Assembly: GCF_964204645.1 (NCBI RefSeq)
Contig: NC_134032.1
Coordinates: 11,086,275 to 11,150,274, forward strand
Length of the DNA: 64,000 nucleotides
From: Tubulanus polymorphus
Lineage: Eukaryota > Animalia > Nemertea
Direction: 5' to 3'
The notes beneath the pieces are model-generated. The model saw nothing but the letters and a program-made list of their open reading frames with translations, was not told the origin of the DNA and did not search any database. Numbering within the stretch: the stretch's first letter is position 1; each line of letters starts with the position of its first letter. This document shows, in pieces, positions 8,044 to 61,300 of the stretch. The position numbers were made by a program, and so were the translations under genes.

Positions 8044-8137
8044 ATGGTATCAGATGTTTTTGTCCAGAGTAGATTAGACCAAAACGCTTACCCAAATAAA
8101 TGGTTGCAATGTGACCAAGATGATGAATGTGAAAATA

Positions 8138-8207
8138 CGCGCACTCATCGGGATCGAACCCGGGTCTCGTACGTATCGTACGTACTAACCAGTTTGGCCA
8201 GTGCAGC
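8138..8207 (-). other. tRNA-derived remnant (possible SINE head)
   Basis: Minus strand has A-box-like TGGCCAAACTGG and B-box GGTTCGATCCC; anticodon arm is degenerate. Confidence 0.45.
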
Positions 8208-8929: not shown

Positions 8930-9202
<273 letters not shown>

Positions 9203-12812: not shown

Positions 12813-12849
12813 TCATGTACTTCAGACTTCACACAACGTCCTTCGAAAA

Positions 12850-13300
12850 AAAAAACGAGACAAAATGAACAGAGAACTAGAACAAAAAACTAACACTATT
12901 TCTATTATTATTACCATATTAAGTGCTCTGTAGAAGCAATAGTTATAGGGTTTTATATGTATAGGAAAAGATAGTGTGTGAGCACGATAGCGCACACTAG
13001 ATGTGTGCTGGTGCGCACACTGAAGGCAAGTGGCTCAAATTACAAGGAGGGAGTATGTTGATAAGAAAGAGCAGCATTGAGTAACTATATTTAAAATGAA
13101 AGGACTTTTAAGGGATGGTGAGTGTAGTCCAGGAGGGAGTAGAATGGAAGTAGCAGGGATAAGGCATACCAAATAGGGAGAGGATAGAAGCGGGTAAAAG
13201 ATTAGTTTTCAAAACGTCTTTAAACAGTTAAGACTATCAATAGATCTAAGGTTGGATGGTAATCCATTCCAGATAAAAGGTCCTGAAAATTCAAAACAAA
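12850..13300 (-). mobile_element. CR1/L2-type LINE 3' end remnant
   Basis: Minus-strand FSGPFIWNGLPSNLRSIDSLNCLK matches the G..WN.LP...R C-terminal motif; short (TAA)n-like tail. Confidence 0.55.
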
Positions 13301-13368
13301 GTCAGCTCTCTTGTATCATTGTGATATATTTGACCTCGTTTATTTCAACAATTTCAGACATCTTTTTT

Positions 13369-29875: not shown

Positions 29876-31267
29876 GGTGCGGTTTCTGAAATTTTTCTCA
29901 ATTTCCGGAATCATTTAAAAATTTCCGGAAAAATCTAAGGAGGGGTCTTACAATTTAAACAAATAATTCCAAAATTTTCCGGAAAATTCTAGAAATCTCA
30001 TTATCGCAGGGGGGTCACTTGGAATTCCGGGAAATACATTCCGGATTATTCTGGAAATTTCCGGAAATCTCATTCCAAAAATTGTTGTGTTAAAACAAAT
30101 TGTTTTTTTGCTGGGTTTTTTTTTGGGGTTAGGGTTTAGTGTTTAGAGGGCTAGGTTTTAAAGGGTTAGGGTTTAGGGGGTTAGGGGGTTAGGTTTTAGA
30201 GGTTTAGGTTTGAGGGTTAGTTTTAAGAGAGTTAGGGTTTAGGGGGTTAGGGTTTAGTGTTTAGAGGGTTAGGTTTTAGAGGGTTAGGGTTTATGGGTTT
30301 AGGGGGGGTTAGTGTTTAGTGTTTAGAGGGTAAGGGTTTAGTGTTTAGAGGGTTAGGGTTTAGTTTTTAGAGGGTTAGGGTTTAGGGGTTAGGGTTTAGT
30401 GTTTAGAGGGTTAGGGTTTAGTGTTTAGAGGGTTAGGTTTTAGAGGGTTAGGGTTTATGGGTTTAGGGGGGTTAGTGTTTAGTGTTTAGAGGGTAAGGGT
30501 TTAGTGTTTAGAGGGTTAGGGTTTAGTTTTTAGAGGGTTAGGGTTTAGTGTTTAGAGGGTTAGGGTTTAGTGTTTAGAGGGTTAGGTTTTAGAGGGTTAG
30601 GGTTTAGGCGTTAGTGTTTAGGGGGTTAGTGTTTAGTGTTTAGAGGGTAAGGGTTTTAGTGTTTTGAGGGTTCAGGGTTTAGAAAGTTAGGTTTTAGAGG
30701 GTTAGTGCTACTGTTTCCTACCATTTTATACGTACTATTCGTCTCAAAATCGTTTGAAATGTCCTGAGAAGCTCCAAGTTATGTACAAAAATGCTTCCAT
30801 CGATTTGGCATACATTTAGGGAAAAGCTGTGATGCTTTCAAAAAAGAACACAGTTCTAAATAAAGCGTTAATAAAACGCCATTTTATTAATTAACATTCA
30901 CACAAAACTTTGTGTTAAAACTTTGTTATGGTATCCAGGTGACCCATTAAATCTGGAACCGTCCGGAAATTTCTGGAAAAATAATTCTGATTTTCCGGAA
31001 TTCTGCGGTACCCCCCCCCCCCCCCTCCGTGCCGTTACGCGATCAGCTTTCTGGAAAAGCAATTCTATTTTATTCTGGAACGTCCGGAAATTTCTGGAAA
31101 AATAATTCTGATTTTCCGGAATTCCGCGGTAAATCCGTGCCGTTACGCGATGAGCTTTCTGGAAAGATCCGGAAATTTCTGGAAAAGCGATTCTATTTTA
31201 TTCTGGAATGATCCGGAAATAGTCAGAAAAACGATAGTAAAGTATGAAAAATGTCAGAAACCGCACC
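29876..31267. mobile_element. Non-autonomous TIR element with telomere-like core and nGAAn arrays; AAT TSD
   Basis: aat|ggtgcggtttctga ... tcagaaaccgcacc|aat. Confidence 0.8.
30125..30707 (+). repeat. Degenerate interstitial telomere-like array (TTAGGG/TTTAGGG/TTTAGAGGG/TTTAGTG)
   Basis: Directly visible, ~580 bp. Confidence 0.92.
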
Positions 31268-32574: not shown

Positions 32575-32852
32575 ATGTTTACTAAAACTCTGTTCATCGC
32601 GTTGGCCTTGTTTATGGTCGCAGGAGCTGCCGCGGCTACTGAAGGTATTTTTCTCGGTTTATAACAGCCGTTTCCAACAAAGTTTTTATTCCACAAACAT
32701 AAATCAAAGTGGCGTTTTATCTTTTTACAGAAATTCGGATTGGAAAGCGAGGACTTTCGTGTATTTGTAATGGGAAATCTGGTACATATTGGGTCATGAG
32801 TTTAAACCCGAAATGTTGTTCTTCAATTTTGGGACAATGTTGTCCTAATTAA
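32575..32852 (+). CDS. Secreted six-Cys peptide precursor (63 aa), APETx/BDS beta-defensin-fold toxin-like; exons 32575-32644 and 32731-32852
   Basis: Spliced translation MFTKTLFIALALFMVAGAAAATEEIRIGKR/GLSCICNGKSGTYWVMSLNPKCCSSILGQCCPN*. Signal peptide, KR processing site, phase-1 GT-AG intron, AATAAA at 32892. Confidence 0.88.
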
Positions 32853-33515
32853 GATTTCTGTTTCTGATATTTCGATAATAGTAATATTTCGAATAAAAAA
32901 ACAGATACAATATCTCTATTCTAGTTTTCAGCTGTTTTTTGTTTAAGCATTGGCCCAGGGCAGAATGCATTCACTTTCAGTGCGTCGCCCAGTTTTCTTT
33001 TCAACACGCTTTGGCGGATTTCGTGAACACCAATCTACCGGCGTCCCTTGACACCAGCTCAACAACTGACTAGATCAGATCTAAGTTAACCGATTTGCAG
33101 CCAATTGACTGTCCATATATATAATGTTTGCATGAATTAGTAGGTACATTTCTGCGTGGTAGTGGGCTCTGAGTGTCAAGACCGCCGCCGGACAAAAGCG
33201 GACTTTAGAAAACGACATAGTTTTTCGATCCCAATTTACAAATGATTTTCGAAATCATTCGTAGGCATTACAAAAACATCCATTTGGATCGCTATTTCTC
33301 AGCCAGAGATGGCTAGTCACGGCCAATCCTTCTTCCGTGGTCTAGCTCCGATCGGACCCAACGCTGATGATTCAAAAGAAGCCTACTTTTTTAATGAGTG
33401 GTAAACTACAATCCTGGAAGTGTTAGTGTTTCCACAGTAATCTCCGTCCTCGGGTGTATCGGTGCCTCTGAATATTGTACAATCAATAGCAATCGCCAAA
33501 ATTCTATACTTCGGA

Positions 33516-34139
33516 CCACAGGCACTTGAATATGGGCTTTGATAATGGATAAATATTTGATAATTCACCAGCGATACGTTAATCCTACTTTGATAGATCC
33601 GCCATGTTTTATAATAAATTTACCCATGATGCAACGCGCGGCCGTCGTTTAGCTATACTATACAGAAAGGCTGGAAACGATCCTATCTCCGTAATGCTTA
33701 AATCTACCCGCAGTTATCGGGACAGATGACGTCACAGCAATCCCGAAGAGGCATCGCGAATTTTCAAAAATCAATTTTGTTGCCATTTAAAATCTTTAAT
33801 GGAGCTAAAACAGTGTCAATGTTTCCAAAAAAATCATCTACAATTGAAATTATGGGCGCTCCTTATATATCAGGTTTAAAATTGACACTAAGGACGTACT
33901 TCGGCAATCATCGGCAGTGTTCGGCTGTCCCGATAACTGCGGGTAGATTTAAGCATTACGGAGATAGGATCGTTTCGTTTCCAGCCTTTCTGTATAGTAT
34001 AGCTAAACGACGGCCGCGCGTTGCATCATGGGTAAATTTATTATAAAACATGGCGGATCTATCAAAGTAGGATTAACGTATCGCTGGTGAATTATCAAAT
34101 ATTTATCCATTATCAAAGCCCATATTCAAGTGCCTGTGG
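33516..34139. mobile_element. Palindromic (foldback) element, ~210-bp arms and ~200-bp spacer
   Basis: ccacaggcacttgaatatggg ... cccatattcaagtgcctgtgg; arms near-perfect. Confidence 0.9.
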
Positions 34140-37100
34140 TGCTGCCCTCTCTCACTTGAAAAATACAGAACAATAGGTGATTGTGTTTAAATCTTTTGTC
34201 CGCTTTTTTAATGGTTTTTGGGCTCTCGGAGTCGATATTTGGAGGAAAATTCTACTGTAGAACAGGCAGAATAGGACCTCGTTACATCTGGTGGCAGCGT
34301 AGTGGGATTTGATTGTGAAAAAACCAGTTGAAATTGAGTTGAAGCGGTGAACACGTTTTTCTCCGTTTAGTCTGTGTACGGTTACTTTTTGTGTGTACTT
34401 TACGTTCTTTTTACCTACTTCGTAATTCCTAATGTCTATTTATTAATTGATGAGACCTGTTTTTCTTGGATATTTTGCTTACTTTTTGGGGTACATACCT
34501 CATTTATGTCTTAACAGAATGCCAAAAATCGCGGACAACAACTGAATATCCGATATATTTCCAGTTCTGTACCAATTAGATGGATTGGCAAAAAGACTCC
34601 TTAAGTCCAGTTGAATGAGAGAGAAAATCCTCCATTTTGTCAAATTTCTTGGATTTGAACATTGTTACCATGCCTACGCCACCCTGATTTAGTTGTTGAG
34701 ACCCCACAAGAAAAATAACTTCATTTCGTAGGCATGGTGACAATGTAAAAATTCAAGAAATTTCACAAAATGGAGGATTTTCTCTCTCATTCAACTGGAC
34801 TTAAGGAGTCTTTTTGCCAATCCATCTAATTGGTACGGAACTGGAAATATATCGGATATTCAGTTGTTGTCCGCGATTTTTGGCATTCTGTAAAGACATC
34901 AATGAGGTATGTACCCCAAAAAGTAAGCAAAATATCCAAGAAAAACAGGTCTCATCAATTAATAAATAGACATTAGTTCATATTTAGTATTATTTTAGTG
35001 CCTGTTTCCCCTAATTTTATTTGCGGTCCTGTATTTTCTGTGTCATTTATATAATAGAATAGTAATTATGTCTGGATGTTGAGAATGATGTGTGTGGTGA
35101 GCCCTTGGCCTGGCCTATGTCACCAACGGCCGGAGCTGCACATCATGACCTCCTGGTTAGTGGGGAGGGTAACCTCTCGTCAAAACCAAAACGTGGCCGC
35201 CCAACGAAGACGAAAGCGGAAAATTTAAAAACATCTGAGGATTCCATCCTTCAGCGCCTGACTGAAGTAATGGAGAGGGTCGTGACAAGAGATGCACCCA
35301 TCCCAAAAATGCACAATATTCAGGCGCCCAAGCCCTATACCATGGGACACAATTTCCGCGTTTTGCTCGAAAGGTTTGACCTGGCTCAGATTAGTTCTCT
35401 CATCGACGGGAGCGAACAGCGTAAATCACACCTGATGATGCGACTTGACCATGGGGCATACCAGGCTGTCTTGAACCTACGTCTCGACTCGAGCCTTTCG
35501 TATGATGATTTCTGTCGGCGGCTATCATCCCGTTTCCAGCAAACAAAGACTGTGGATGACTTTAAGATGTTGTTGAAAGGGAGGGACCAAAAGACCACAG
35601 AATCTGTGGAACGCTATGCTGACGAGTTAGCAGAACTGGCAAGGAACGCGTACCCTGGCATTGCTTTCGAGCTACAGGACGAATTGGCCAAATACCAATT
35701 TCTTACAGGTAATAGCCTACCCGTCTCAGCGAAGTAGTCAATGTATGCGGCCCAGCCAAGTTTGCTGGCTGCAGCAGTCGCTCAAGCACGGACTCTGGAA
35801 ACAGCGAGACGGTTGACTGAGGGCATGACTCATAAAAAAAAGAATCCGTTAACCAGACCCAGCTCGACTCGAGTAGCTCAGCCATAGCCAAACAATTCGA
35901 CGACTTGAAATCGATGATGGGAACGCTGATGACTCGAGTAGGCCATTTGGAAGCAGTTGTCTCTGGTAATGGCAATCGTTGACCGCCTGCTGATGACAAA
36001 TGTTGGCGTTGCAGGGATGCAGACCACCCCAAAAACTTGTGCCCACGAGTTAAATGCTATAATTGCGGGTGGAGTGGTCACTATTCAAGTAACTGCCACC
36101 TACCTAAGGGAAACCAGGGAAACGAGAAGCAGGGTTTTCAGGGGGGCAAGGGAAACCCCATCAGGAAATAGTCCCCCCTGTACCGCTGTATATACCCCCC
36201 GCAAGGCATAGGAAAAACGGATGAATATGGCAAATGGCCTAATGTGCGATGCAAGTAGAGATGCACCTATTGATGGTTCCCATCAAAATAGCCCCACCAC
36301 CGTGAGACCATCAAACCATATTCAAATGATATCGAGACCATCAAACCATAAGGAAACGACACCTCTAGATGGATATGTGGTTGCTGGCCCGGCAAGTGAT
36401 TCTAGTGGAAATACACCTACCGATGGTCCATCCTACTAGAACCATCACTGTTCGACCACAACAACATACCCAAAGTATAGAAGAAAATCGACGTGACCCT
36501 TCGGAGAACAGTGAGGCTCCCAGTCCGGCTATGGAAAACACTTGTCACAAGTTGCGCGACACCAAGGTTCAACCAACAGGAACGTCCAGATCGACGAGCT
36601 TAGTTACAAACATCGGAACAGTGAGGCTCCACGCCTCAGGTCTTTTCTGTGATGCCGTAGTAAATGACCGTTCGAAAGCGGTGGTACTCCTGGACACTGG
36701 TGCCTCCTGCACCATCATTAGAGGCTCAGTATGGGACTCTAGTAGCCCGACGGGTGAAGCCGCTGCACTAAGGCCAATGGAAGGAATCGTGACAACAATC
36801 GCTCAGCCAATGGAGTTACATGGGTTTTAGCTGAGGTATGTCTTGAGAGTTGGAACTGAAGAGAATTTCATGTCCCATTGATCCGCAGCGAGGATTTGGC
36901 CCAAGACTGCTTACCCGGAAGTGATTTCTTCGAGAAATATGGCTGCAACATAGATTACCGTAACAAAGTGCTCCGCTTCGGAAGCCTCAGCAAGGTGCCT
37001 GTCCGCCAGAGCCCCAAACGCGCGAGTGCTTGCAGGGTGCTTGCTTCATCAGTAAGAGCCAAATCATTCCAGCTGGATCCGAGGTGGTGGTAAATGGATA

Positions 37101-38032
37101 CATGAAACTGACTTATGCTCATAATAATTCGACCTCAGGGATGATCAGCAGCTGTGGACGGAATAATTTCTGCACTGGGAAAACGCTGGTCGTACCGGAG
37201 GCAAACCAGATACCAGTTCGGCTAGCTAACTTCTCGGATGAGGCTTGTAGAGTCGACAGGGGCCAGACTATTGGTCTATTCTGCCCCCTACAGTCAGTTG
37301 ACATTATGACTGTCGACGACCATGCTCAAAACCCATCAACTCCAAAAATCCAGCTGCAGGATGGTTACAATACTGAATTCATGGACCTCTTGAGAGAATT
37401 GAAAATCAACCAGCTTGAAATCCCCACTGACATGAAAACACAGCTTGTTGCCATCATACGGGAGCGCAAGTCAGTATTCTCGATTAGAGACTTTGACATC
37501 GGTCCAATAGATTCGCTTGAATTCGAGATTGACACCGGTGACCACCCACCAATATAACAACATCCCCTTCGGCTACCCCCTGGTAGGAGAGCTTTTGTTG
37601 AGAGGACGACCAAGGAGCTTTTAGAACATGACTTGATCCGGCCATCCACCAGTCCGTGGTCAAGCCCAATAGTTTTAGCGAAAAAGGCCGATGATTCCCT
37701 GCGCCTATGCTGCGATTACCGCCGACTCAATGACGAGACAGTCAAAGACTTGTCACCCGTTAGGTAGAATAGACAGTACCCTAGAGGCTTTATCAGGTGC
37801 GCCCTGGTTCTCGTCCCTCGATTTGACCAGCGGATACTGACAGGTCCCGATAAAGGAATCAGACAAACATAAGACCGCATTCACGACTGAAAACCATCTA
37901 TTTGAGTGGAATGTCATGCCGTTTGGAGTCTGTAATGCCCCGGCGTCATTCAGCAGACTGATGGCGATGGTACAGGATGATGTTGCATGGAAAACATGCC
38001 TTATCTACCTGGATGATGTAGTGGTGTAGTCA
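34140..38032 (+). mobile_element. Decayed Ty3/Gypsy LTR retrotransposon (LTR end, tRNA-Leu-type PBS, gag, protease, partial RT)
   Basis: GTTACA|tc|TGGTGGCAGCG PBS at 34289; gag 35090..35737; CYNCGWSGHYSSNC knuckle at ~36055; LLDTGAS protease; SPWSSP, DYRRLN, MPFG and YLDD motifs with stops; truncated just after YLDD. Confidence 0.9.
34429..34976. mobile_element. Second foldback element (~250-bp arms, ~48-bp loop) in the Gypsy leader
   Basis: ttc|ctaatgtctatttattaattgatgagacc ... ggtctcatcaattaataaatagacattag|ttc. Confidence 0.88.
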
Positions 38033-39194
38033 TGATCTACCAACCCATCTGATGCGATTACCATGTTGAGCATTCTCTGATACCCGGGCTATGAAACTAA
38101 TTCAATTCACATGGGGGTGTTTATGTTTTAGCTCATGCTATGTTTGAAGACATTGAGTATCATCAAGAATACGATGATCAATGGTTGAAATCAATTTGGG
38201 TGGCAATTAATACATATTTAGAAGACAGTGCTGTTCAGGTAGGTCGACTACAACCCACACTAGATGTTAATGCAGTTGGCTTTAGATCTCTAAATATGTA
38301 ACCCAAAAAAACCGAGTTCACAGTTCTGTGTCAGATATGAGTCCAGTTTTTTCATGAAAAAGTTTTAACTCCATTAATCAATTTCATTTCTTAGTAAATT
38401 TACTTTATCTTGAATCCTTAAAAGAGTTGATCTTTTTTTCTGAAACTGAACTAGAGTTTTTCTGAAACTGAACTAGAGTTGAGTATTTAGAAATATAGTA
38501 ATTTAACTCTAGTTAGGAGGGGGTCGTTAAGGATCATGATCTTTTAGTTATTGCTGTTTTTAGTCTATATGTATGAAAGCATTTGGCGAAACTGATGGAA
38601 TATCGACCAGTTCTTGAGTCGAGAATAGGTGAAGATCCTGACCTCAGACAGTAAGTAAACCCAACTTAAGAGCTAAGTACCGGTAATTTCCTCAAACGAA
38701 TTTTTTTCCAATGATTTTTTGTAGAGACCCGATTCATACAATGTGTTGTGGAGCAATTTTTGTTCATTGGAAGAATGCTAAAGTATTTTCAAACTGAAGA
38801 AGTCTTCAAGCTGTAGCAGCTATTGCATGTCTTGCTGATAATGGTAAGTACATGTACATGTTTCATGTTAGTGTACATGTGCATGTCGAAGTGTACATGT
38901 TTAGTATCAAAAGTACATGTCATTTTGTACATAGTCTATATTGCATGCATGTTTCATTTCGAAAGTATGTCAGCTTACAGAGATTGTGCATTATGTGATT
39001 GTCTTGTACAGTTTATGTACACTGATATAATACATGTGCATGTTTCAGTGTGTAAAGATCAAAAGAACATGAATTTCACATAGAATATTCTACTACAAAT
39101 CATTTCAACAAGGACTCAATACTTAAAGGAAAAAGGTTATCAAAGTTTTCAGGAAATATTGAAGTTTTATTTGAGTTGATCAGTAGATCTATAA

Positions 39195-40528
39195 TCATCC
39201 GAGCATATCGGTATATTCCGGTGTATTAGTATTTTTCGTTGCTATGACGTTCATTACAAATGCCGTCTGCAGACTGACCAGCGCCGCCGGTGCCCCCACG
39301 TATCTGATTAACAGATGATTACCGGATGAGATTCCGGACTGCAGTCCAGATGCTGACAGTTTCTGTAAGGTACAGTATAGTTCTCCGTAGTCAGCCGCTC
39401 GTCCGGTTAAACTAAGTTGTATACCTACACTACACGGGTCTCCTGCTGCATCTACAGCGCCCTCTGCTGGATTCATTAGTAAAACGGCGTAACCTACACG
39501 CTGAAATTATTGATTGTAGATTGTGGAGAAGGGGTTGAGGTAAAAGTTTGTAGGTTGTCTCCGGTATTACTTACCATCTCATCACCAATAGCGTAAACAT
39601 TCAATGTAACTGCTGAATCAGCTGAATGATGAACATAAACCTTCTTGTACGGTTCATCCTTCTTTACATGAATAACTGAGTTTTCAGGTGGAAGACCTGC
39701 AGGTAAAACATAGTGACAGATCATCATACCCAGTCCTACAGTTCTGGACCTAGTTACACAGTTCTGGACCTAGTTACACAGTTCTGAACTCGGTCCCACA
39801 GTCCTGAACTCAGTTCCACAGTCCTGAACCTAGTTCTACAGTTCTGGACTCAGTCCCACAGTTCTGAACTCAGTTCCACAGTTCTGAACCTAGTTACAGA
39901 GTTCTGAACTCAGTTCCGAAGTCCTGAACCTAGTTCCACAGTCCTGAACCTAGTTCCATAGTTCTGGACCTAGTTTCACAGTTCTGAACTCAGTCCCACA
40001 GTTCTGAACTCAGTTCCACAGTCCTGAACCTAGTTCCACAGTTCTGGACCTAGTTCCACTGATATGGATCCAGTTCCACAGTCAGGATCCAGTTAGAGTT
40101 TAGCTATATTATATTGAGGCGTCTAGTGAAATATTCTTACCCGTCTGTTGTGGACAGAGTCGTTGACAGTCTCTGTTCTGTGGATATATTTCGCAGAATG
40201 TTTTCCTCGGTTGCGGCGGGATCGGCCGATGAGGGAAACCTGTATAATACGGGTTCGGAAACTGTGGGGTTTGCTGATAATTGGGCAGATGGGGTCCACC
40301 CCACATTGAACCCCAGTTCGGTTTCTGATTCCAAATATTCCAACCTAAAATTAGAAAATTTGATTATCGGTGTAGTTTTGACTAACACGCAAGGATACAG
40401 AGAAATAAGAATAAATCATACTGACTCTACATCTGTACTTGCTTACCTCTATTTCCATGACTCCAGGGTGGACTTGAGATGGTGTCTCTCATTATCAATA
40501 TCAGCAACAGTAAACTATGAAACTTCAT
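39195..40528 (-). CDS. Nested secreted protein, 237 aa: signal peptide, W/P/Q-rich segment, CUB-like domain; exons 40528-40447, 40344-40141, 39696-39575, 39500-39195
   Basis: Four exons join in frame (82+204+122+306 = 714 nt) with GTAAG donors and AG acceptors. MKFHSLLLLILIMRDTISS signal; DPC..GELYC..ISSGNHLLIRY..AF is CUB-like. Confidence 0.8.
39735..40095. repeat. 20-bp minisatellite (cagttctgaactcagttcca), about 17 copies, in intron 2 of the nested gene
   Basis: Directly visible. Confidence 0.9.
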
Positions 40529-40624
40529 CTGTTAAAAACATTATAAGATATTTAAACGGCTAGAAACCCCTGACATAACCAACGTTAACGACTTATTCAT
40601 AAAACTCAATCACTTTAATACCTG

Positions 40625-40776
40625 GGGCCAGTTGCATAGTCATGGCTTAGACTTAAGACCAGTCTAAGACCAACTTCGTTCTATAGCCAATCTAACAACT
40701 TAAGACCAGTCTTAAGATTTAAGACCACTTTTTGACTTCTTGCCCCCTCTTTGACTCACGACTGTGCACCTGGCCC
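40625..40776. mobile_element. Harbinger-type MITE (GGGCC ends, CTG TSD)
   Basis: ctg|gggccagttgcatagtc ... gactgtgcacctggccc|ctg. Confidence 0.65.
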
Positions 40777-43162
40777 CTGGTCTATGACCTAAGCTCTTTG
40801 ACTTACCGTGAATCTATGATTCAAGTAAATTTAATTCTATGAAACTGGATAAGAGTTGACTGTCACGCATCCAGACTTGTTATGAAGGAAATTACAAACA
40901 TGAATGAGAAATAACTTTAGAATTCAATTTTACGTAGTGTATTTTCCATTATGTTTCTGACATTTTATAAGCCGTTCTCGACCATTAAATAAATTGTTAT
41001 TTCATTTCTACGTGACGACATATTTTCGGAATGTTTTCGTCTCATTGATAGAAACTAATGGATCTTCAATCATCTCAAACTGTAGGTGTTTTAACTGTAT
41101 TTTGCTATTTTTGTAGAGGTAATTCGACGCCAGTGTTTGGTTGAAAAGGTTCATCATAAAGTATTGACAGCGATGCAGGTTCACGACTGTTCTGAGTTAA
41201 TGCAGGAATGTGCTTTAGAAGCCATGGCGACACTCGCTAGCGCAGGTATGTGTTTAACTACTGGCGCCATCTACATCTTACCCCCAGACCCAGTTCCAAG
41301 ATTTAACTTAAGAGTTAACTCATTGAAAATGAACAGATTTCAATTGAGAGTTAACTTACTCAATGACCGTGGAACTGGAGGTGGTTCCACCTTGATGGTT
41401 CCACCTTGAAAATAAGCTTAAAACCTAGGACTAGTTTAAATATATGGAATATATGAGAACCATTTCAAAAATATCAGCCATTCGAGCGTTTGAGACTACC
41501 ATACGATTTTGTATTTTAGAGGGTGGGACTAAATTGTTGATTGACAGCTATGATTTTGTAATTTAGAGGGCGGTACTAAACTTATGATTGATGCTGAGGC
41601 TATTGAACAAGTGATACACACTATGGAAATTCTTCAATTCAGTGCAGGTCGGTTATATTTAACTTATGCTTTGAATAGAGATGAAAAAACAGTTGATTTC
41701 GAAAAATTTTAATTTTGACTCAATAGTGTATCACAGCAACACGATGATTTTTTTTACTTCAGGTATTCAGAAACGTGCTATGGTTGTTTTACAAATATTC
41801 TCTGAAGAATGGCAGTTTCATGATGAACAGTTATTACTGAGTCTAGCATCTGTGTTACAGTCCGTTCTTGATGTATTTTTTGATGATATATTTCTACTGC
41901 AAGAGGTAAGAGTGATGGAGGGAGAGGAGAGAGAGAGTTGGACAGAGAGGGGGAGAGGAGAGAGGGTGTTAGGAGAGGGGAGAGGGAGGGGAGAGAGAGG
42001 AAGAGTTGGGGAGAGGGAGGGAAGAGAAGGGGAACAACTTGTTCATGTTACTCTTCGCAGTGACATTAGCTTTATAGAAAATGACTACTACCAGTTACTC
42101 TTGAACTTCTGTAAAATTTATAATCTAGCTTTCTTTTTGCTGGGGCACTAGAGTAAAAAGGGCTGCAACTGTAACTCACAAAATCATCCTTAAAATCTGC
42201 TCCTGACCTTATTGTTGAATATACAGTGCCCCCTGGTGACGATAGCATTGTTTATTTCAGACGTGTGTTGCTATTCATCTATTGGCTGAAGAAGGTAGCG
42301 TTATTTGTTGGGCTTTTATCGATCAAAAAGTTGAACGAGGACTTTTCAATATATTGGAACAAAAACAGGATTATGCCGGTAAATATATATCTGTTCTACA
42401 TCTCAACTTTCAGAGTGCCACATCCAGTTCATTAATTGACTCTTGAGCAAAACTTTGGTATGGTTTCTGTATCCTAATGTTACCTAAAAACTGTGTTAAA
42501 CCAGGTCCTAGAACTTGAACCAGGTCCTATAACTTAAACCAGGTCTTAGAACTTGAACCAGGTCCTAGAACTTGGTCCTGCTGCCTCTATATGGATATAT
42601 GACCTGTATATATGAAATCCAGTAGTGATTTTGTAAAATTTGTTGATGTTTTGTTGTTGTTTTTTTTTTCAGATTTATTGGAGTATGCTAGTTATTGTAT
42701 TTATATAATAGGATGGGTGGCAGGATTCAATCCAAGACTTCTACTATCGGCGTGTGAACTCGGTTTACTAAAGGTACATGTGCCTGTTATGTATCTGTAT
42801 TACATGTACATGTCACATTCATTATTGATTATATCAAATCCTGACAACTGTTCAGCTGGATGCTAATTGTTTGTTTGCTGTGAGATAACTTTTGAAACTT
42901 TTCCCGTTGAATTACAGACTCCCCTCTCCCCTATTGAATTCATCAGAATGCATCACTTATTTATATCATATCATTATTTACCATCAAAGACAGTCTCATT
43001 TATCAATTTAGTTATTTATTTGTCGTTGGAACTACTTTTTGTTCGGAAGAATATGCGGCTTCACGTATATTCCGCCGTGCTTCACACACATGCGCGCCAC
43101 AAGACTCGCTGCAATGTAATCTGTGCTAGTATATGAAAAGCACGCCTCTCATGTGGTAGCCC

Positions 43163-46100
43163 CAGGGTTCAAAGCGGTCATGGATTTCCTGGAAAGTCAT
43201 GGATTCAAAAATTGTCAAATCCAGGCCCCTAAATGTCCCTAGGTCATGGAAAGGTCATGGAATTGCATTTCCATAAACCCTGTGCATAGGATACAGAACC
43301 CTGACACATGTTTAAAGGCCTATATCCAACAACATGCATCATTGTGTATTCCAGACTGGGACCCACTTAATTGATGAATAATACATATCCTAAGCCCTGG
43401 GGACCTAAGTTACTATAAATTGCACTCTGAATGCATTGACCATTGAAGTATACCATTGAAGAGGTGTGTTAATTATGATGGCTCATTCCTCAATTCAATC
43501 TACTATTGTAAAGGCTTGCAGTCTAAATAATGTTAGTCTTGATAATTGCTTGAATTGTAATGAAATTGGTAATTAGCAGTTAAATTAGTAGCGTTTCAGT
43601 GTTCAGACTCTACTTATGCCTACCTATAACATATATAACTGTGATTAATTTCTAAATGACATAAACTGGGTCTGTTAGAACAATGCATTTCACATGGTTA
43701 ATTTATTAAATATTTCATTCAAAATTGTTTCCTAATTATTAATCTTACAATAGCTCTGAAACTAAATAATAGGCCTAGCAAAACTGGGCCTTTCATTAGA
43801 TATGTATTGCATCTGCATGAGGAAACATCCATCAGAGTTCAGTCCTTAAAGAAATATTCAGTATGCCCGGAAAGTGTAGATTTAAAGATTCCTGGCTTAA
43901 TCATGAGGATTATAGTCCTTGGATAGGAAAAACAAAATCAGAATATGAAGCCAGATGTATGAAATGTCTTCGGAACTTCAGCATCGCAAATATGGGAGAG
44001 GCTGCTTTGAAAAGTCACATTAAAAGTAAACTCCATGTGTCATCGATGACCTTGGCTAATTCAACAAGAGGTATTCCTAACATGTTTTCGAGTAATACAA
44101 CAAGCAGTATTTTGACAGCAAGTAATCGTCAAACATCAAGGTAAGTTAATCATTAATATACAGAATTGTTAATATTTTAAAATTGAATTTATTACAACTA
44201 TGTTAGTTATTACAATTATTATTTTTATTTTGCAGGCCAATAATGGACTCATATATTGCAAAAGATACTGTCCTGAAATCCGAGATAATTCATGCTTTGA
44301 ATATGATAAACAATCACCACAGTTACAATTCCTGTTCTGGAATGAATGACATACTTAAGGCATGCTTTCCAGACAGTCAAATAGCCGAGATGTTTTCACT
44401 TAGTCAACAGAAAGCAGCATATCTAGTTCGTTTTGGTATTATGCCACATGTAAAGGATCTAATGAGACGGAAAATCAAAGACCAACAATACGTGTTACTA
44501 TTCGACGAATCATTGAATCAGCGTACGCAAACTAAACAGTTGGATGTGTTAATTAGGTTCTGGGACCATGATGTAGTAAGGTCTTCGTATTACGGTTCAG
44601 ACTTCATTGGACGAGCGACTGCAGACGATATGCTGCATTCATTTATGGACACATTTGGAGATCTCAATTACTCCAATCTTTATCAACTGTCCATGGATGG
44701 TCCAAATGTGAATTGGAAATTTTATGAATTGTTGCAACAAGAAATTTCAAGTATGTGTAATACTCGAAAGTCTATTCTGAACATAGGCAGCTGTGGCTTA
44801 CATGTCATGCATAATGCCTTCAAAGCCGGCGACCATGCTACTGACTGGGATTTGGAGTCACTTCTTATCAACCTGCGTTATTTGTTCAAAGATGCTCCTG
44901 TCAGAAGAGAAATGTTTACTGAGGTCACTGGTAGTCAGAAGTTTCCATATAAATTTTGCTCTACTAGGTAAGTGAATTGGATTTTAGTTGTTATTAAAAT
45001 ACATGTACTTAATTAGGCAATCCAAATTACCCTGGTTATCAATTATTGTTTTATCTCCTTGCCGTATGTTAGCAGTTAAACTCAACATTTCTATTTTTGT
45101 TTTAGATGGCTGGATAACCTGCCAGCTGCATAACGTGCGATTGAACTATGGCCGTATATCATAAAATTCGTGGAGCACGTTCAAACTTTGAAAAAGGCTA
45201 ACATACCGACATCGAAACCATATTTATACATAAAAGACTTAGCGTCATCTGATATGGTATTGCCGAGACTGCATGCGTATGTATCTATTGCAAAAACAGT
45301 TACACCGTTCTTAACCATCTACCAGACGGACAGGCCAATGCTGCCATTTTTGGCGGAAGACATACATAATGTTCTCCGATTACTGATGAAGCGATTCATC
45401 AAAAGTGATATAATTCGGGAAGCAGATACTCTCACTAAGTTGATCAAGATAGATACAAAAAAGGAATCGAATTATTGCGTTCATTCTAAAATCGACATCG
45501 GATTTATCGCGGAGGCAAAAGTTAAGGAACTTATTGCAGTTGGAAAAGCAAGTCAGCGCCAGTTTCTCGATCTGAGAATGAACACTCGAAAATTTCTTAT
45601 CAGTTTAGTGGATAAAATAATAGCCAAAGCGCCGATCCAATATTCTTTGGTTAGAAATATGGTATGTTTAAATCCGAACGAGCTTGCCGCTAATTGTGAC
45701 CAAAGTCGCGCTCAGTTCAAGAGAATAATAAGTTCATTGTCGAGCTCGAATCATATAGATGATTCGGATTGTGATACCGTGTTAAACCAAATGGACGAAT
45801 TCATCAATAGCGTTTTCGTAAAAACTAAATCGGATTTTGTGAGCTTCAACAAAAAAACAGATCGATTAGATACTTTCTATCATAAACATATGCAATGCAA
45901 TTCATCATTTGATAAATTATGGTCAGTTATAAGCAACCTGCTGTTATTATCTCATGGGCAGGCTTCTGTAGAGAGAGGGTTTTCGGTAAATAAGCAGATC
46001 GAGGTTGAAAACCTAGCTAATGAATCGTATGAAGCTCAAAGAATGATTGTAGACCACATTCGATCCGTAGGGGGTGTGCTGAAAGTACAAATTACCAAGG

Positions 46101-46740
46101 AGTTACTTCTTTCCGCATCTCAGGCATATTCGAAGTACAAGGCCTATCTGGAGAAATGTAAGGCTGATTCAGAAAAAAGTGCTTGGGGTATTAAGCGTAA
46201 AGCCGAATGTGACGAATTGGAGAAATTAAAACGAAAAAAGAAATTGCTTGAAATTGACATCGAGTCGCTCACCACCTCCGCAAATAAGTTTATTGAGCAA
46301 GCAGAACAGGCAACAGCTTTAAAAGATGTTCGTCCACTGATTACGAAATCAGTGTCATTCCGCAAATCGGCCAATGATAAACGTGCAGAAATTAATGACA
46401 TTTCAGAACTTATTGATACAAAACAAGAAGCACTAAAAGGACTTTAAGATGTTACTTTGATATATCAATGCTTTACCGGTTTAGGTTTATGTTAATAAAA
46501 GATTAATCATTTGTCTGCACCATGAAGTATATGAGTATATAATTATGAAATAAAATTAATATTCTAACAAATTAATAATTTGTCTTTTTAACGTTTGTTC
46601 TTTTATAGTTAAGTTTGTCGTTTCATGGTCATTCCTCGGGGTTTCAGATATGAAATTAGGGTTGGAGAGGTCATTGAATTGGGATTGAAAAGGTCATGGA
46701 AAGTCATTGAATCAGATAGGTCATGGAAGCTTGAACCCTG
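43163..46740 (+). mobile_element. Full-length hAT DNA transposon with 6-bp TSD
   Basis: tagccc|cagggttcaa ... ttgaaccctg|tagccc; subterminal ggtcatggaa repeats. Confidence 0.92.
43863..46447 (+). pseudogene. hAT transposase, exons 43863-44140, 44236-44967, 45106-46447; one in-frame TAA
   Basis: BED-type CMKC..H....H, LLFDES, MDGPNVN, CGLH, spliced RW, SVERGFS; TAA at 45131-45133. Confidence 0.88.
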
Positions 46741-52058: not shown

Positions 52059-53479
52059 TTAAGCCAAACCATGACACCAAAATCAACACGATTGGTTCAA
52101 CAGCCAATGTTTGTGCCTTGTTGACACACCCGTACTCTATTCATTTTCAATGAAAACTGCTTCTCCAGACCATTTGCATAGGCAAACCTACAGTTCACCA
52201 AAAATCAACTTACATTTCAAGTTTGCTGGGTTCAGTATCGGTTAAAATGTTCTAAGTTCGTATCAAATATCAAATTACCTTTTATGATGGCTGGGTTCAT
52301 TATCGGAGGATCTCCTAAGTTGGTTGGTTGAGTTTCATCCAAATTGGCCCCTTCTGTGCACTGTTCTCTAATCGGCAGATCTTAGTTGATGAGCTCTCGT
52401 TCGACTTTTTGAGTTGGTGTCCCTTACGATCGTGACACACCTGCCAGGAGCGAAACAGGCGGGAATCGAAGTACAGATATAGTTGTGTGATCGTCGGTCG
52501 ATTTTACATAATTTTTTTTCGATAATTTTACAATATTTGGTCTTTTTTTTCATGTAGTCCGAAAGTTTACAAGGTTGAAGATAATTTTGTCTAATTTTTT
52601 TTTGGAAATCGGAGTACAGATATAGTTGTGTGATCGTCGGTCGATTTTACATCATTTTTTTCGGAATCGAAGTACTTCTTTGTCTTCTTGGGTTTCGTCG
52701 AAGCTGAAATTGAGAAAAAGAAAAACATTTTGTAGTCACACATTTCTTCATCATTAATCCTAATTTACGTGGGTATCAACTTAACTTTCAAGATTGCCGA
52801 GTTCAGTATTTTTTTCGGCATCATCTGTAGTCGCCTTCTAGCATCTTCTTCTTCAACTTCTTGGGAGTCCTGAAATGAAAAAAAGAGAAGAGCGATGAAA
52901 ACCTGGTACGGAACAAAACTAATGTTCGAAAGCTTTTCAGCTCTCCGTCGCCGGTCACATGCCGAGAACACCAGACAATGAGCCAGCCAGGAATATACTG
53001 CCCTCTACACGCCCTCACACAGAACGCGAAAACCAGAATGACAACGCCTCACATTCCCCATCTAACTGCAGGATGTACTGGGCGACGTCAGTAACTGACA
53101 CACCTGTAAAATTGCACGAAACACAAATAGCGCAGTACAACCAGCTTGACCGGGCGAGATTCAGGATCTCAACTAGCACTCAAAAGCGTGACAAGAGACT
53201 TCATCCACTGACCGAGGTTGTCACAAGGACACAATGAAACTAGCACTCACAAGCTGACAAGAGACTTCATCCACTGACCGGGGTTGTCACAAGGACACAA
53301 TGAAAACTAGCAATCAAACTAGAAATCAAAGAGCGTGACAGTAGAATCATCCCTCAGCCGACTCAGAATACCAGAAACAAAGAGCGTGACAGTAGAATCA
53401 TCCCTCATCCGGGCGGTCATAAGGACACAATGAATGCTAGTAGCGTGACAATCCAGTATAACCGCTCCATTTGTATCCC

Positions 53480-53700
53480 GCGCAATCCCACAGATATGCC
53501 CGTCATTGACATCACTCAGCACACTTTGTAGATAGGTGGGGGCAGTAAGGCCTCGTCATCCTGGTTTTCGTGTTCCGTATGAGGGTGTGTAGAGGGCAGA
53601 ATTTCCTGACCGCCTCTTTGTCTGACATCCTCGACACATGACCGGCGAAGGAGAGCTGACGCTTTCGGACATTAGTTTTGTTCCAGCAAACGTTGAAATT
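53480..53700 (-). mobile_element. RTE-type LINE C-terminal remnant
   Basis: VRKRQLSFAGHVSRM..YGTRKPG motif. Confidence 0.6.
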
Positions 53701-56086
53701 TGACAGAGAAATCGGCCCTGAAAAATAAAATGGGTTAAATGCTGAAAAATAGAACGGATTAATAAACACGGAACAGTACAGGACAGCACGGAGATGAACA
53801 GTAACACATAAAACATAAAGACGTCGTTCCGCAGGAACTAGGAGCGGGAGCGCAGCGAAAATCGCCAGGAGAATCCACAGTAGCATGTTCACAGTGTGAG
53901 TGTGCAGAGGTGAATGGCCTATGCTTGTGTACACGTGGTCAGCCGGTGACATATTCAATAGCGTGTATGAATGATATCAACAACTCTGAAAAGCCGCAAT
54001 TGTGTCTCTATTGTTAAATGGATTTACATTGAGAGCTTATAGAAGTTGAATGAAAAGGTTCTACTGCCGGGTTGAATACACGCCAGTAGCCAGCTGAACA
54101 ATATCGTGGAATTTTAATAAGGCCATAAAAATAAATTTCTTTGATTCCCAACAGCTCCCCTCCTAATTTAGCCGCTGCCTGTTTATTTTTCTTAAATTTT
54201 AGAATAATTTATTGAAATCAAAGAATAAAAACATTAACATTTATTGATGAAAACCTCTAGCTTTATTTCTCATAAATGCATAGATACCCCGAAGTGGTGA
54301 CATAAATAATTCCAACTTCAAGGCTAAACAAAAATGATACTTTGTTTCTTCAGTTCATTTCTATAGCTGCCAGGTCTGTTATGGTAAAATAGATCACGAT
54401 TCTTAAAAACAGTAATGTACAAGGTAGACAGGCGGCTGGGTCAACTTTTAAGCTCAGCAGAGCGGAGAAACAAGGTATCAATTTTTTGCCTACGATTTGT
54501 TTTGTTGAAGTGAATGAATTGTTTAACAAATTTCATACACAGTGTACGATCACATGATGTAAGTGGAATGTATTTTATAATTAATCATCATTTCATTCTG
54601 TTATCACAGAGATCCCGTACCTGTAGGGCCATATTCAGGGGGAGAGGGTGCGAACGCTCCTACCCCCAAAAGTTCGAGTTCCGCTTCATATTTTCCATGC
54701 GTTATGTGTTGTTTATATGTCTTACAATTTATGTGGTTGGTATCCTGTCGTTTTGTCAACAATTTTAAATGTTAAATGTTATTCCAATCTGTATAGGCCT
54801 CATCAGTAGTATGCACATGGGTCAAAGATCATGATTGCACGGTGGCATGATGGACCCATTGCATAGAATGATTCTATGCAATGTTTCATCATGGGATTCC
54901 TCAAATACAAATGATTTGAAAAAATAAACGTTTTATTAGTTGCGGATTTTCCACATGAGTCGATCTTAGGTTTTTTAATTGCATAGATAAGTTTTCTAAG
55001 TTTTCTGTGGGTTGGAAGCATTAATGATTACATTGCTATGAGGTGATGATCATCAAATCAAATTTTTAGATTATGAAAAATTATTTAGATTCTGCCATAC
55101 ATGGAAAATTTCAGAAAAGAAATAGCCAGAAAGCCCTCAGAATACACCTTAGAGTGCCTTAAATAAATGAAAAAAATTTTACCTACCCATAGACAGGGCT
55201 GCATACGGCCCAGCCGTCAGATTTTCATAAAAACTCCCTGATTCAATTGAGGGGAGAAATATTAGAATTTTTTGAATCACTTGGAGCACGGATCCTCTGA
55301 AATTCTGCCAAAAACTTCATGCCTACCACTCATGATTTGAAAAAAAAAATTTTTTCTTTAATTTTGATTCTAGATTAAACGGTCAAGTCCATATTTAGAA
55401 TTTCGTTTCTTGTTCTTCTCTGTTTTAGGTTGGCGAGTGTTAAATAGAATTAGGGATTGATTGTAATCAAGGTGAAGGTCAGGATACTCCGATCTGCTAC
55501 GCCTGTCGACATCAGAACGAGGCTATGGTACAGTGTCTGCTTCAACAGGTATATATTGATATATGGAGTATCAGTGACTCCAGTGAAAGAGCCAGCCAGT
55601 CCAGTTTATATCTACTGAAATCCATAAATCACATCTGGCTGAGCTCATTTTCATCTTAAGATCAGTTTTAGTTAAGAACATGCTATGAGTGTCCCTATCA
55701 GACCAATCGAAGAAGCATCTTGTATCTAGATCTTGACTGGAATTAACCCTACACTGATTAATAGCTAGAAATTATCAAATTTAAAGGTTAACTTTCTTTG
55801 AGGTCCAACTGTGAAGTGGTTGTATATATTTTCAGGGTATCAATGATGTACAAACTCCGTTGAAATTAAGTTTAGATTTAGAAGCTCATAATATTACAGG
55901 CAGGCATGCTGCTTCATCATATGGGATTTGATAAAGGTTAGTACTGAACAAATCTTCTAGTTTCACGGTTGTGAGTTAGTTTCAAACTTGATTCGAAACT
56001 ATGAAACCGTATCTTTGAATATTGTGTTCAAGATAAGAATGTTTTGTAGGTGAAGATGTGTTGTTTATTTTGTAGCTGGAATTGTA

Positions 56087-56563
56087 TTTCCTGATATAAA
56101 GATGCACGCAGGGGACCCGGGAAAACGTGTTTTGGAAGTTTGACTCGCAATTACTTAAAAAATAATTGAAATAATTGAAAACGGTAAAAAGAATATAAGA
56201 CCACATAAAGGTGTCTATAGATCCTGAAAACTAAAAAAATGTAGATTAAAATTTGTAAGATTACGAACTTTTGAATGAGATGAGCAATAATTCGAGTTGA
56301 ATTATCGGGAAGACTATATCAAGGTTTATAGCTTCACCAGCGCCCATTGTTGCATTAAATTTATGATTGAGTAATACAATAAAAAAACTAATTATCAGCC
56401 GAGTCCATCGATGTTTTCACTTTGTGTCTATCTTTATCCAATCCAGAGATATGAACGAAATAAAAAATATTAAACGGGGGAAAAAATAGGGACAAAAAAT
56501 TCAACAATGCGGACCCGGCGGGTACCCATAAAAATGGCGCCTGGAAACTGTAAAAAGGCTTAT
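56087..56563 (+). mobile_element. Dispersed repeat family A copy
   Basis: Matches 7735-8043 and 17633-18104. Confidence 0.8.
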
Positions 56564-58371
56564 TAGTTCACCCAATCACCGCTAATGATATGTACAGGGG
56601 CAGCACGTAAGGTTTGTAATATTTCCAAGATCGATTTTGCATACTGTGGCATGCGAGTAATGAAGATTTCACCAAGTCCCGGGTTCGAGTCTGAAGAAGA
56701 CAATATACATATGGTCATCTCATAAGAGTGAAAAAAGCACTGGGTCACCCCAGGGATGGATTTAGGGGTGGTTTGGGGTCCAGACCCTGAGTTCCCAATC
56801 TCAATAAAGGTGCCCTTATCGAGGAAGGCCAGCCCAGGGTTAGCTAAAACCTGCAAATTTGACACTTATCCTTTCGGAATTTGCATTTTTAGGATGTATT
56901 TCTATAAAACTAATAAACAATATATTAACACCAAGGGTGAGTCCCTCCTGGTGGCAGCTTTATCCGAGAAGTGCCTTTTTTCTTCTGGACCCCATGCCTT
57001 ACCCCCTCAGTCACAATAGGACAACTTGGGTTGGGAAGACTTTGGGTTCAAATCTGAGCTTAGACTCGCTACAAACAACTGTCAGAGTTAGACAGAAACA
57101 AGATGAAAACAACGATTTATTTTCTATTTACATTATGGTCAAATATTGATTTATTTTACGATGTTTTTTTTCCTGGCCAGGCACTTGTTTACACAAAAAT
57201 AAAACACGTATGAAAAAAAAAAACACAAATTCCACAAGATTGAGACAACAACGTTCATACAAAAAATCATCATCATTATCAGAACACAAAAATCATTGAA
57301 GTCGTTGAGAGGGAAGACTCTTCCTGAAAACATGGCTGCCACCATGATCCCCCTACGACATGATCATATCGAAACACTCCTTAAATCTCTTCCAGTCGAC
57401 TTTTGTCCCGTAGACTTTAACTTAAGTAGTTAAACCTCTGAAGTTGGGACTTGATTCAGATTTTCCCTCTAAACTTGGACCTATTATAACTATTTTCCTA
57501 TTTTAGAGCCAAACAATGTTTTTGATTGGAGACGGCCATCTTTTAGGAAACGTTTTCAGTGACCTGAATAAATTGTGAACAGAAAAATATTTGACAACCC
57601 AATTTCACAACTATTGGATTCTTGGAGTTTAGTGCCGCGGTCAAACCAGGTTAATTTTTTGTTTATTTAAAGCCCGATTCATTTATTCAATAAAACATTT
57701 AATACAAGTTGATCATCATTAATTACTATTTCATTACAAAATGAAGATTTCCGTTTGCGGAATTTTACACATATACGTTTTTTTTTCCCTTTTACTTTAC
57801 ATCCGCAAGAATTCCTCTCCAATCGAGAAACTTTTCACCGATGGTCTTTTAAAAGTCGCTCCCAGAAATCTGAGATCAAGTTTCAGCGATAGTCACACAG
57901 CAGACGCAGATTGCCTCTCTGCAGACGCAAAGTGCCACTTCACAGCAGATGCAGACTGCCACTCTGCAGACGCATAACTGCCACATGGCAGGCGCAGACT
58001 GCCAACCCGCAGACAGACCCAACTAGACATTACAGACACTGATTTATTAAGCATGATTCAATACCGGTATTTCACAAATTCTTATCGCGCGCGTGACTAA
58101 ACATTTATGTGTCATGAAAAAGACATTCATCGATTCATTATTCTAATAGTGTTACACGAACCGACTGTCCACGAGTTAAATACGGACAATGACAAAGCCG
58201 ATGCCTTCGCGACATTATCGCGAAAAGCCTAGGAAAATATTTTTCTTCCGTAAATTCTTTTCCAGATGTCGTCGATGAGTATTAAATCAGCTCACGTCGC
58301 TGTCGAGTACAACATAATCCGAATTAATCCCTTATAGTTAATCCGCGCACGGATAATCCTGTCGCTCGGTT

Positions 58372-61300
58372 CTAAACGAAGCCGAACGCCTTCGTTTTGA
58401 TGGCGAGCAGTAGTTTAGTTCGTAGGATGTTCTTGCTCGAATACAACGGAATATAGAGTCTAGAAATGCACGTGTTCGCCGTCGGCAGGTGATTGTCGTC
58501 GGCCGGTCGCACGGTGATCGTCGGCATCGGTTGAAACCCTTCCTCGCTCGCCGGCAACGCCGGACTCGACGTCCAGAAGTATACCTGAAATTATTCAACG
58601 TCGAAATTAGCATCGATTGATCGGAGTCAAATTGAACCGAATGAAAAATGGCCACGATTTTTTTCCTACCAGATCTTGTCTTTCTTGATTCGTCATTTTC
58701 TCCACTATCGACCAAAACCAATATTTAAATCGTTGCACTTTGAAACTGGCCTCGCCTACGAAACAAAACCCACAAATTAACGAATGTTTCACCTTCCCAT
58801 CTCCCTAGTAAAGCACGAATTAGATTGATGTACTCTTGTAGATTTATTCACATCTTACAAAACACAATTTTCGACACCTTACTTTAAATTTTTCTCACAT
58901 TTTTATCGTTTTTGACGGATATTTTGCAATTTATTAAAAACCCTTTCAGTGCATCTACACCGCAGGGTGGTGTAAAAAATTGGTGTATAGAATAGACTTT
59001 GCTAGTCCACCGCATCATGGTGTATTGACGTTAATTATAAGTTTTTATCTCTATTGAAAGATGGCAGCACCTGTCAAACATAGTGAAATATAATTAACCA
59101 TACACCGCACCAAGGTGTAGATACATTATTGCAGTGTACCCATTACACAACACACTGGGGCGGAATTTTAAAAGATTTTCAAATTATCTCCAGCACTTTC
59201 GGGCACTTTAGCCAGCACTGAAGCGGAAATCCGTTTTTCACATAAGAATCTGACTTATGACAAAACGCTGTTGAACTCTGCTGTTGAATTTAGTTCACTT
59301 ACCGCTCTCGTCATTAAACGAAGTATAACTGATCAACATTTGAACGTCGATGTCTCCGACGCCGTTCAAGAGCAGACGGAAATCCTCGGCGACCAGACAA
59401 TCGAACGCGTTTCTAGGCAACACGTCGAACACGCCCATTTTCAGATTGTCCAGCGCTTTCTCGGCGTTTTTCACCATGCGGAACTCCGAGTACAGACGCA
59501 CGTAGTCATGCACGTTCTGCGCGGTAACTTCGATGTCGGCGCCACCTGGTAGCAGTTCGATCTGTTCTCCGCCCTAGAAAGCACAGCAGAAAATATGTAG
59601 TAGACCATCACTGAGAATCACTGATGGAGGAAACATAAAAACTTATCCGCGATTATAAGCAAGTTCTAGAGTATTTAAACAAGGTGGCCAATTTCCGCCA
59701 ATGTACAAATCCCCTGATTTTCCCATGTTATGACACAAAATTTCCCCAGTAAATCAAGTGAAATTTCTAAGTTTAAAATAAAATATTACAATTCATTCAT
59801 TTTTCATTGATTCACTTGCCCAATAACGTATGCAAATTCCCTGTGTTTTTTAGGGCCTAACCCAATTCATTTTCAATTGAGTTAACCCCCGGGTTAAAGC
59901 TAATACCAGACTATAAAACTGGCCCCAGGGTTGGTTTTTTGTGCGCAAAATCTCCTTAATTTTGTTCTAGATTTTCCCGATCCCCCCATATTCGTGGCGC
60001 CACCCTGTTCAAACCTGATAGCGACGCACGTACCTCTTCGGGGCCGAGTTCAATACTGAATGTTAAATCCAACGCCGTGAACATCAACGCGGCGTCCTTG
60101 TTGTCCGAGTCGACGATCAACGTTCGCAAACTCTCGTACATCACCGGGTCGAAGAACGCCAGGTCGTGCCAGTGGATCTTGCGCCCGATTATGAATTTGA
60201 TCACATGGCGATTCAGAAACAGCGGACACATTTCGTTCTGCAGTAAACACAGTCCTATCACTCTGAAATATACAGAGGGAAAAAACGTTTGCGAGTTACT
60301 GAATAACGTTTACGCCTTTTACTTTAACTTATAACAGGGTTCCTGCTGATGTTCTTATCCTAAATTCCCTGATCCAGATCTCAAATTCCCTGATCCAAAA
60401 TTCAGATTACGACAAAAAAAGAATCATCGGTCAACCTTCTTAATATGTTCCCTACCAGCTATGAATATACTGCTATGAATATACTCATACTTCCCTTGCC
60501 GTTGCAACTATGAATATTTGTAGCTGCTCACTGTTTGGTATTTGCATTCCGGTGCATAAGTATGGCACAGCATTACATACTTAATAATTGTGCATGATAT
60601 ATTTGTTATTCACTTATTCAACGCTGTAGCCCCCTGGCCTCACGACGCGAGACTTCATAACTAGCGCTTTGTAATTTCAATCGCTCACCTGCCCATGTTT
60701 CTAAATGCGTTCAATCTCTCGAGGCTGTTTTTACCGGGTCTCGGTGAGTAGTAGCCGCGTTTGCCCGGCTGCCAGAACAGCGGACTGCTGTCGTCGAGTT
60801 CGTCGTCGTCGTCGGCCTCGCTGCGCGTCGATCCGGCCTTCTTCGTTTTGCTCGGCGACAAATTGAATATATCGAGATCGAGCAACGCTTCGGCGCTTAA
60901 TTCCCTGTAAATACGTATCAAATCTTACTTAGAGACTCTAGATTCTAGATAAGGGATCATTCATTTATTACGTACGCATAAAATCTGAATTTTTCAACCC
61001 CCCTCCCCCTCTGTAGGCAAAATCATTAAGCATTACAGTACGCAATTGCACTGACCCCTCCCCTAATGCGTACGTAATAAATGAATGACCCCTAATTCAC
61101 TGTAAAGTTTTCTGGACCTCTTCTCTGGAATACTATCCCTAAACCGATTCGTAATTCAACTAGTTTATCAGTATTTCAACGTAAATATTTAAAATTCCTT
61201 AAATTATCGTGATTATCTTTTTTGAAATTTCATGTTGTATTTCTATGTTTGAATGCATTCGCCGATGCAGCATGCGTGTGTGTTTACGTGTGGTGCTTGT

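Follow-up and report, generated by a model that had tools for sequence, protein, structure and literature searches.

A predicted secreted-protein gene nested antisense in an intron of an LRRK2-like gene fragment of the nemertean Tubulanus polymorphus

A 64,000-nt stretch of the Tubulanus polymorphus genome (contig NC_134032.1, positions 11,086,275 to 11,150,274; hereafter the window) contains four minus-strand exons that splice into one reading frame within a single intron of a plus-strand host gene. The reading frame is real as sequence, and it is, by prediction from that sequence, a nested antisense gene, an ordinary arrangement with an undescribed product. The host is likely an LRRK2-like gene. 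Our somewhat favored reading is that the nested gene is a resident of the LRRK2-like gene and that the window holds a young partial duplicate of both, in which the host exons are starting to decay.

Table 1. Features of the nested gene, its host fragment and the bordering repeats (positions in the window).
Feature	Position	Strand	Evidence or remark
Nested exon 1	40447..40528	-	ATG, predicted signal peptide, start of arm
Nested exon 2	40141..40344	-	Cationic Pro/Trp/Gly/Gln-rich arm and C78-x8-C87-x3-C91
Nested exon 3	39575..39696	-	Start of C-terminal domain; no Pfam match; single-sequence model pLDDT 56
Nested exon 4	39195..39500	-	C159-x19-C179, stop; no homolog, no Pfam match; pLDDT 37
Candidate polyadenylation signal AATAAA	39166..39171	-	Sequence only
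Candidate promoter and non-coding first exon	40806..40969	-	TATAAA at 40969, GTAAG donor at 40806
20-bp minisatellite, 17 copies	39738..40082	.	Inside nested-gene intron 2
High-copy short repeat, MITE-like	40620..40776	.	Within predicted first intron; basis read depth
Host exon h1	38132..38238	+	Splice phases
Host exon h2	38564..38650	+	Extra T at 38582, frameshift only in window
Host exon h3	38725..38843	+	Two exon halves fused by deletion at 38793/38794
Host exon h4	41117..41245	+	ARM_LRRK2 match; covered by spliced X4 contig
Host exon h5	41567..41647	+	X4 contig, splice phases
Host exon h6	41763..41905	+	X4 contig, splice phases
Host exon h7	42261..42378	+	Splice phases
Host exon h8	42673..42773	+	Last host exon found in window
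Truncated, decayed LTR retroelement	35066..38061	+	Retrotrans_gag E 2e-4; 197 loose reads at 38061
DNA transposon with terminal inverted repeats	43163..46740	+	TAGCCC flank on both sides, right of fragment

The initial annotation had proposed that four open reading frame pieces splice into 237 amino acids, and this was borne out. The exons of 82, 204, 122 and 306 nt add up to 714 nt, that is, 237 codons plus a stop, and the three introns (102, 444 and 74 nt) are all GT..AG, have compatible phases and share the donor GTAAG. All coding exons (39195-40528, minus strand) lie within the phase-1 host intron 38844-41116 (plus strand). When this 2273-nt intron was shuffled with dinucleotides preserved, a spliced ATG-to-stop model of at least 714 nt arose in one of 500 shuffles at both acceptor thresholds; at the strictest acceptor threshold none of 500 matched, and the real model then scores 576 because the acceptor of exon 4 fails that filter. 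The best model on the opposite strand of the host intron is 366 nt. An AG acceptor stands immediately 5' of the ATG, which suggests a non-coding first exon upstream; the promoter and first-exon candidate given in Table 1 is speculative. In addition, AATAAA occurs 24 nt 3' of the stop. The plus-strand open reading frame 40063-40563, which has only a weak TraO match, was rejected as an antisense shadow of nested exons 1 and 2.

Variation in reads and contigs was compared over 38000-39730 (runs X1, X2, X3 and X5) and 40090-41910 (runs X4, X1, X5 and X7), and substitutions were taken from the best-supported 40 of 77 and 40 of 122 variants. Among the variants listed, ten fall in nested coding sequence, and six of them are silent against an expectation of 23% (p=0.013); the other four are conservative (F/L, A/T, I/V and V/A). 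The sole listed indel in the nested exons is in frame and inserts 3 nt close to the stop, ahead of the final codons. This silent-biased variation is modest evidence of a working gene. The contigs of X4 and X7 do not cover nested exons 1 and 2, and contigs cannot show absence. One might suspect that the frame is a silent relic or arose by chance, since every homolog search was blank; however, with the shuffle result, the silent bias, the signal-like start and the polyadenylation signal all standing against it, we consider it very improbable.

The product is probably a secreted protein, as judged from its sequence. The N-terminus is hydrophobic (the 7-residue Kyte-Doolittle average peaks at 4.0, at residue 6), and the best 19-residue window, by hydropathy only, reaches 1.59 at residue 204. 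Residues 19-77 form an arm with five K/R, no D/E, 22% Pro and 19% aromatic residues, and the Trp/Pro/Gln-rich arm quoted in the initial annotation stands as written. Cysteines occur at residues 78, 87, 91, 159 and 179, so that the spacing of the first three, originally given as C-x7-C-x3-C, is corrected to the one in Table 1. Cleavage of the signal near residue 19 would free the mature protein, whose cationic arm would attach to surfaces of negative charge, for example microbial envelopes or mucus glycans; the arm would be held on a disulfide-stabilized beta-rich domain, with the fifth cysteine free to cross-link. The product might act at body surfaces in defense or in mucus with narrow expression, a role we put forward tentatively, and gamete-surface, adhesive or matrix roles may apply instead. 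Wamide neuropeptide precursors carry dibasic sites after their W-G motifs; such sites are absent here, and this candidate was dropped.

Homologs were sought with single exons as queries. None was found for exon 4 among 488 candidates, 1.84 billion representatives and 413 metagenome stretches. Meanwhile, the atlas search was blank for nested exons 4 and 2, and a PDB search by sequence with exon 4 returned only a chance beta-lactamase match. As a control, a conserved UBR5 exon of the window gave best matches of 74-77%, the named ones being molluscs; therefore, the protein collection lacks both this animal and any close relative. The description of the gene as an orphan is thus weak: searches by single exon found no relative, but they are confounded by the poor sampling of the relatives of this animal, and the orphan status may be a sampling effect.

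A CUB-like domain had also been proposed for the C-terminal part, and on the present comparisons it is a lead only. Pfam searches with exons 3 and 4 separately gave no CUB match at E<=1. Of 30 bacterial CUB loci, 27 went into a profile, the other three being short or truncated. Against this profile residues 91-230 scored 0.3 bits, a score equaled or bettered by 68 of 1000 shuffles; in a glocal test the figure was 91 of 300, and hhalign gave a CUB probability of 0.6%. The single-sequence models of exons 3 and 4 are too poor for a fold search. CUB domains and single-CUB spermadhesins (PMC10214685) are extracellular, as the product is predicted to be, and resemble it in a length of about 110-130 residues, in a late cysteine pair and in one strand motif; in contrast, the product has no significant profile score and no evident first cysteine pair, and a long low-complexity arm stands in front. 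A degenerate single-CUB protein of gamete or cell surfaces, like spermadhesins, would account for the domain of about 130 residues, for the C-x19-C pair and for the one strand that both HMMER and hhalign align at the expected CUB position, and it would agree with the enrichment of Drosophila nested genes for testis expression (PMC3814207). Set against the blank Pfam searches and the profile, shuffle, glocal and hhalign scores, such a protein appears unlikely.

A further likeness is to penaeidins and hyastatins (PMC4954822), which share with the product a signal peptide, predicted in the latter, a cationic Pro-rich arm and then cysteines; the arm, which is also rich in aromatic residues, would act much as their Pro-rich domain does. 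However, their six-cysteine array C-x2/3-C-x9/10-CC-x5-CC is absent here, where a three-cysteine motif and a further 140-residue domain are found instead, and the nearest UBR5 matches in this study are from molluscs, not crustaceans.

All eight host exons (38132-42773, plus strand) are phase-compatible. The LRRK2-like assignment draws on one exon, h4, which matches Pfam PF23744 (ARM_LRRK2) at profile positions 521-561 with E 4e-4 and 19 bits, below the cut-off of 26.2. One of eight exons thus gave a sub-threshold match, and single short exons are not expected to pass. The other seven, h1 among them, are presumably placed along the N-terminal armadillo region of LRRK2, which their order and helical character fit. 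In contrast to LRRK2, a ROCO kinase, the fragment comprises eight exons only, and no ankyrin, LRR, Roc, COR, kinase or WD40 exon was found within the window; no further LRRK2 domain turned up in 68 flanking open reading frames or in 87 candidate exons elsewhere in the window, a scan that tests fairly for exons of the kinase, Roc and LRR domains and weakly for N-terminal ones. With host exons as queries, homologs were found in neither the one candidate nor 598 metagenome stretches, a PDB sequence search returned no LRRK2, and a stop-masked six-frame Pfam scan of the host was blank. A suspected loss of the acceptor of h1 was rejected because a good acceptor is present at 38131.

A frameshift and a stop had been noted in the host exons, and both are present in the window; neither, however, is quite what it seemed. 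Neither the contigs of X1, X2 and X3 nor any of five raw X5 reads carry the extra T at 38582. It may be a private variant or a homopolymer error, since variants are lost in contigs and a minority copy can escape a sample of five reads. The TGA at 38797 is a by-product of an internal deletion that fused two exons, not a point change. Contigs of X1 and X2 depart from the window at 38793 and keep the frame over the next 30 letters shown, and an X3 contig joins the window at 38805, coming from different letters; therefore, the window has lost an internal segment. The two ends of the deletion meet in a short run that they share, and four nt more were lost before 38805. Bin-depth arithmetic suggests that X1 also holds the deletion junction of the window, at a depth of about 20-45. 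A separate deletion of 316 nt (38541-38856), in three reads of X5, strikes the same exons.

A fuller, spliced copy of the host exists elsewhere. The 2572-nt X4 contig is confined to exons h4-h6 and is for this reason read as a transcript; it extends 1513 nt 5' of h4 and 705 nt 3' of h6, where the exons of the window supply only about 310 and 219 nt, and it differs from the window at ten listed exon sites. Therefore, segmental duplication is the best reading, and the earlier proposal that a segment of the LRRK2 locus was duplicated is supported, the window holding a fragment only. The nested gene likely also resides in the intact LRRK2-like gene, so that nesting is its normal state. Pieces of X2 and X3 that begin in the undeleted exon continue into the same host intron, and overlapping X2 pieces extend to nested exon 4, a link from intact host exon to nested exon that rests on overlapping pieces, never on one contig or read. 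In addition, a contig of X1, a run which may be the source of the window itself and is hence not independent, crosses nested exons 1 and 2 with non-window alleles, lacks the MITE-like repeat at that site and shares sequence with further contigs that extend into host exon h4. In X5, non-window alleles stand at 0.4-0.9 across nested and host exons alike. At seven of 26 X5 sites the variant is unfixed and yet differs from 0.5 (p<0.01), the window allele being the minority; these sites reflect more than two haplotypes, through a duplicate or pooled animals. Most X5 reads (268 of 453) are 95-99% alike to the window, which is only a few percent from other haplotypes; therefore, the copy is young. 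Depth differences in X5 were discarded as a measure of copy number because they track GC content, and an apparent second copy of the nested gene starting at 38848 proved, by depth arithmetic, to be a 39-nt low-complexity match from elsewhere.

Alternatively, there is no duplicate, and the window shows the sole LRRK2 locus, either as a damaged haplotype or as a chimera of the assembly. The absence of the extra T from all four runs and the repeats that form both borders would agree with this, as would the bubbles in X1, in which two versions at similar depth (24-38 versus 23-34) also fit two alleles of one locus. However, the remainder of the gene is absent from the window on either side, within 38 kb on the 5' side and 21 kb on the 3' side, the fragment runs into unrelated genes, and the X1 contig across the deletion junction, itself deduced, is required by the bin-depth arithmetic. 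Together with the minority standing of window-like alleles in X5 and the separate 316-nt deletion, this makes a sole locus unlikely in our judgment. Under the preferred reading of a resident gene and a young partial duplicate, a small secreted gene would very probably have settled antisense within an LRRK2 intron, and a 4.7-kb piece (38062 to past 42773) would then, with reasonable probability, have been copied recently between two mobile elements, where it is now decaying. The copied host piece could never work at its new site between the retroelement and the DNA transposon, and the intactness of the passenger would be due mainly to the youth of the copy.

The initial annotation went further and proposed survival of the passenger alongside decay of the host. 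Two lesions in 884 nt of host exons predict 1.6 in the 714 nt of the nested gene, and none was observed; this difference is not significant (Poisson P(0)=0.20, Fisher 0.51; about 0.09 for three host lesions by hand calculation), and chance alone would leave the passenger intact in about 10-20% of such copies. The ratio of silent to replacement variants among those listed does not differ between host (5/8) and passenger (6/4; Fisher 0.41). Selective survival is therefore not upheld, and residence in the intron of the intact gene is likely the older state of the passenger. The idea that the duplicate is kept because a second secreted gene is favored, with the host piece decaying beside it, would find some encouragement in the two to three host lesions against none in the nested exons, and in the listed changes of the window from the majority (two replacement and four silent in the nested exons, five and three in the host). 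Given the non-significant lesion difference and the MITE-like insertion within the predicted first intron of this copy, we regard it as quite unlikely. There is an outside chance that the gene is the founding member of an undescribed secreted spiralian defense or adhesive family, with a cationic Trp/Pro arm, a hinge of three cysteines and a degenerate CUB-like domain, residing in an LRRK2 intron and multiplied by repeated duplication of the LRRK2 segment with host exons knocked out independently; the window deletion and the separate X5 deletion strike the same exons.

Nested intronic genes of animals have been treated by Lee and Chang 2013 (PMC3814207) and Assis 2016 (PMC5174743). According to the former, about 9.5% of Drosophila genes lie in nested structures, 71% of them antisense, and the nested genes are fast-evolving and narrowly expressed. 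The present gene resembles nested opposite-strand intronic genes in being a small, multi-exon and apparently fast-evolving gene in an intron of a large conserved gene; it differs in that a host piece and the passenger were copied together. Our literature search, thin on subscription journals, found no paper on a nested gene in LRRK2 or on such a protein architecture. The arrangement is common, and the novelty lies in a single undescribed, predicted secreted protein of a thinly sampled animal; should its arm turn out to kill microbes or to adhere, invertebrate surface proteins would gain a new architecture. The locus also offers a test case for selection on passengers of young segmental duplicates. 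Meanwhile, a search for LRRK2 in the Tubulanus polymorphus genome can land on the dead fragment.

The surroundings of the fragment contain several further features. The retroelement is its left border, past which (38061) other copies continue; the left end (38061-38093) lies in a 33-nt unit that forms tandem repeats in other haplotypes and is a possible breakpoint seed. The DNA transposon on the right is presumably hAT-like, and beyond it lie the 3' exons of UBR5, a HECT E3 ligase (52800-63250, minus strand), one of which served as the control above. Toward the start of the window, three tandem, intronless and closely similar genes of about 480 aa (5277-14853, minus strand) are taken by us to encode MATE transporters, and nuclease and reverse transcriptase open reading frames at 463-4855 (minus strand) are presumably Harbinger-like and LINE-like, respectively. 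A degenerate TTTAGGG/TTAGGG-like array, telomere-like but internal, occupies 30121-30705. Long inverted repeats (33361-34140 and 34519-34970), fold-back-like by eye, separate the retroelement from a two-exon gene for a small peptide (32578-32645 and 32730-32852, plus strand) with a signal peptide, a KR cleavage site and six cysteines. Below threshold, this peptide matches Pfam Defensin_4 (E 0.002; BDS/APETx-type), a family known from sea anemones, whereas UBR5 of the window is nearest to molluscs. It may therefore represent a peptide of defensin or toxin type that is new to the lineage.
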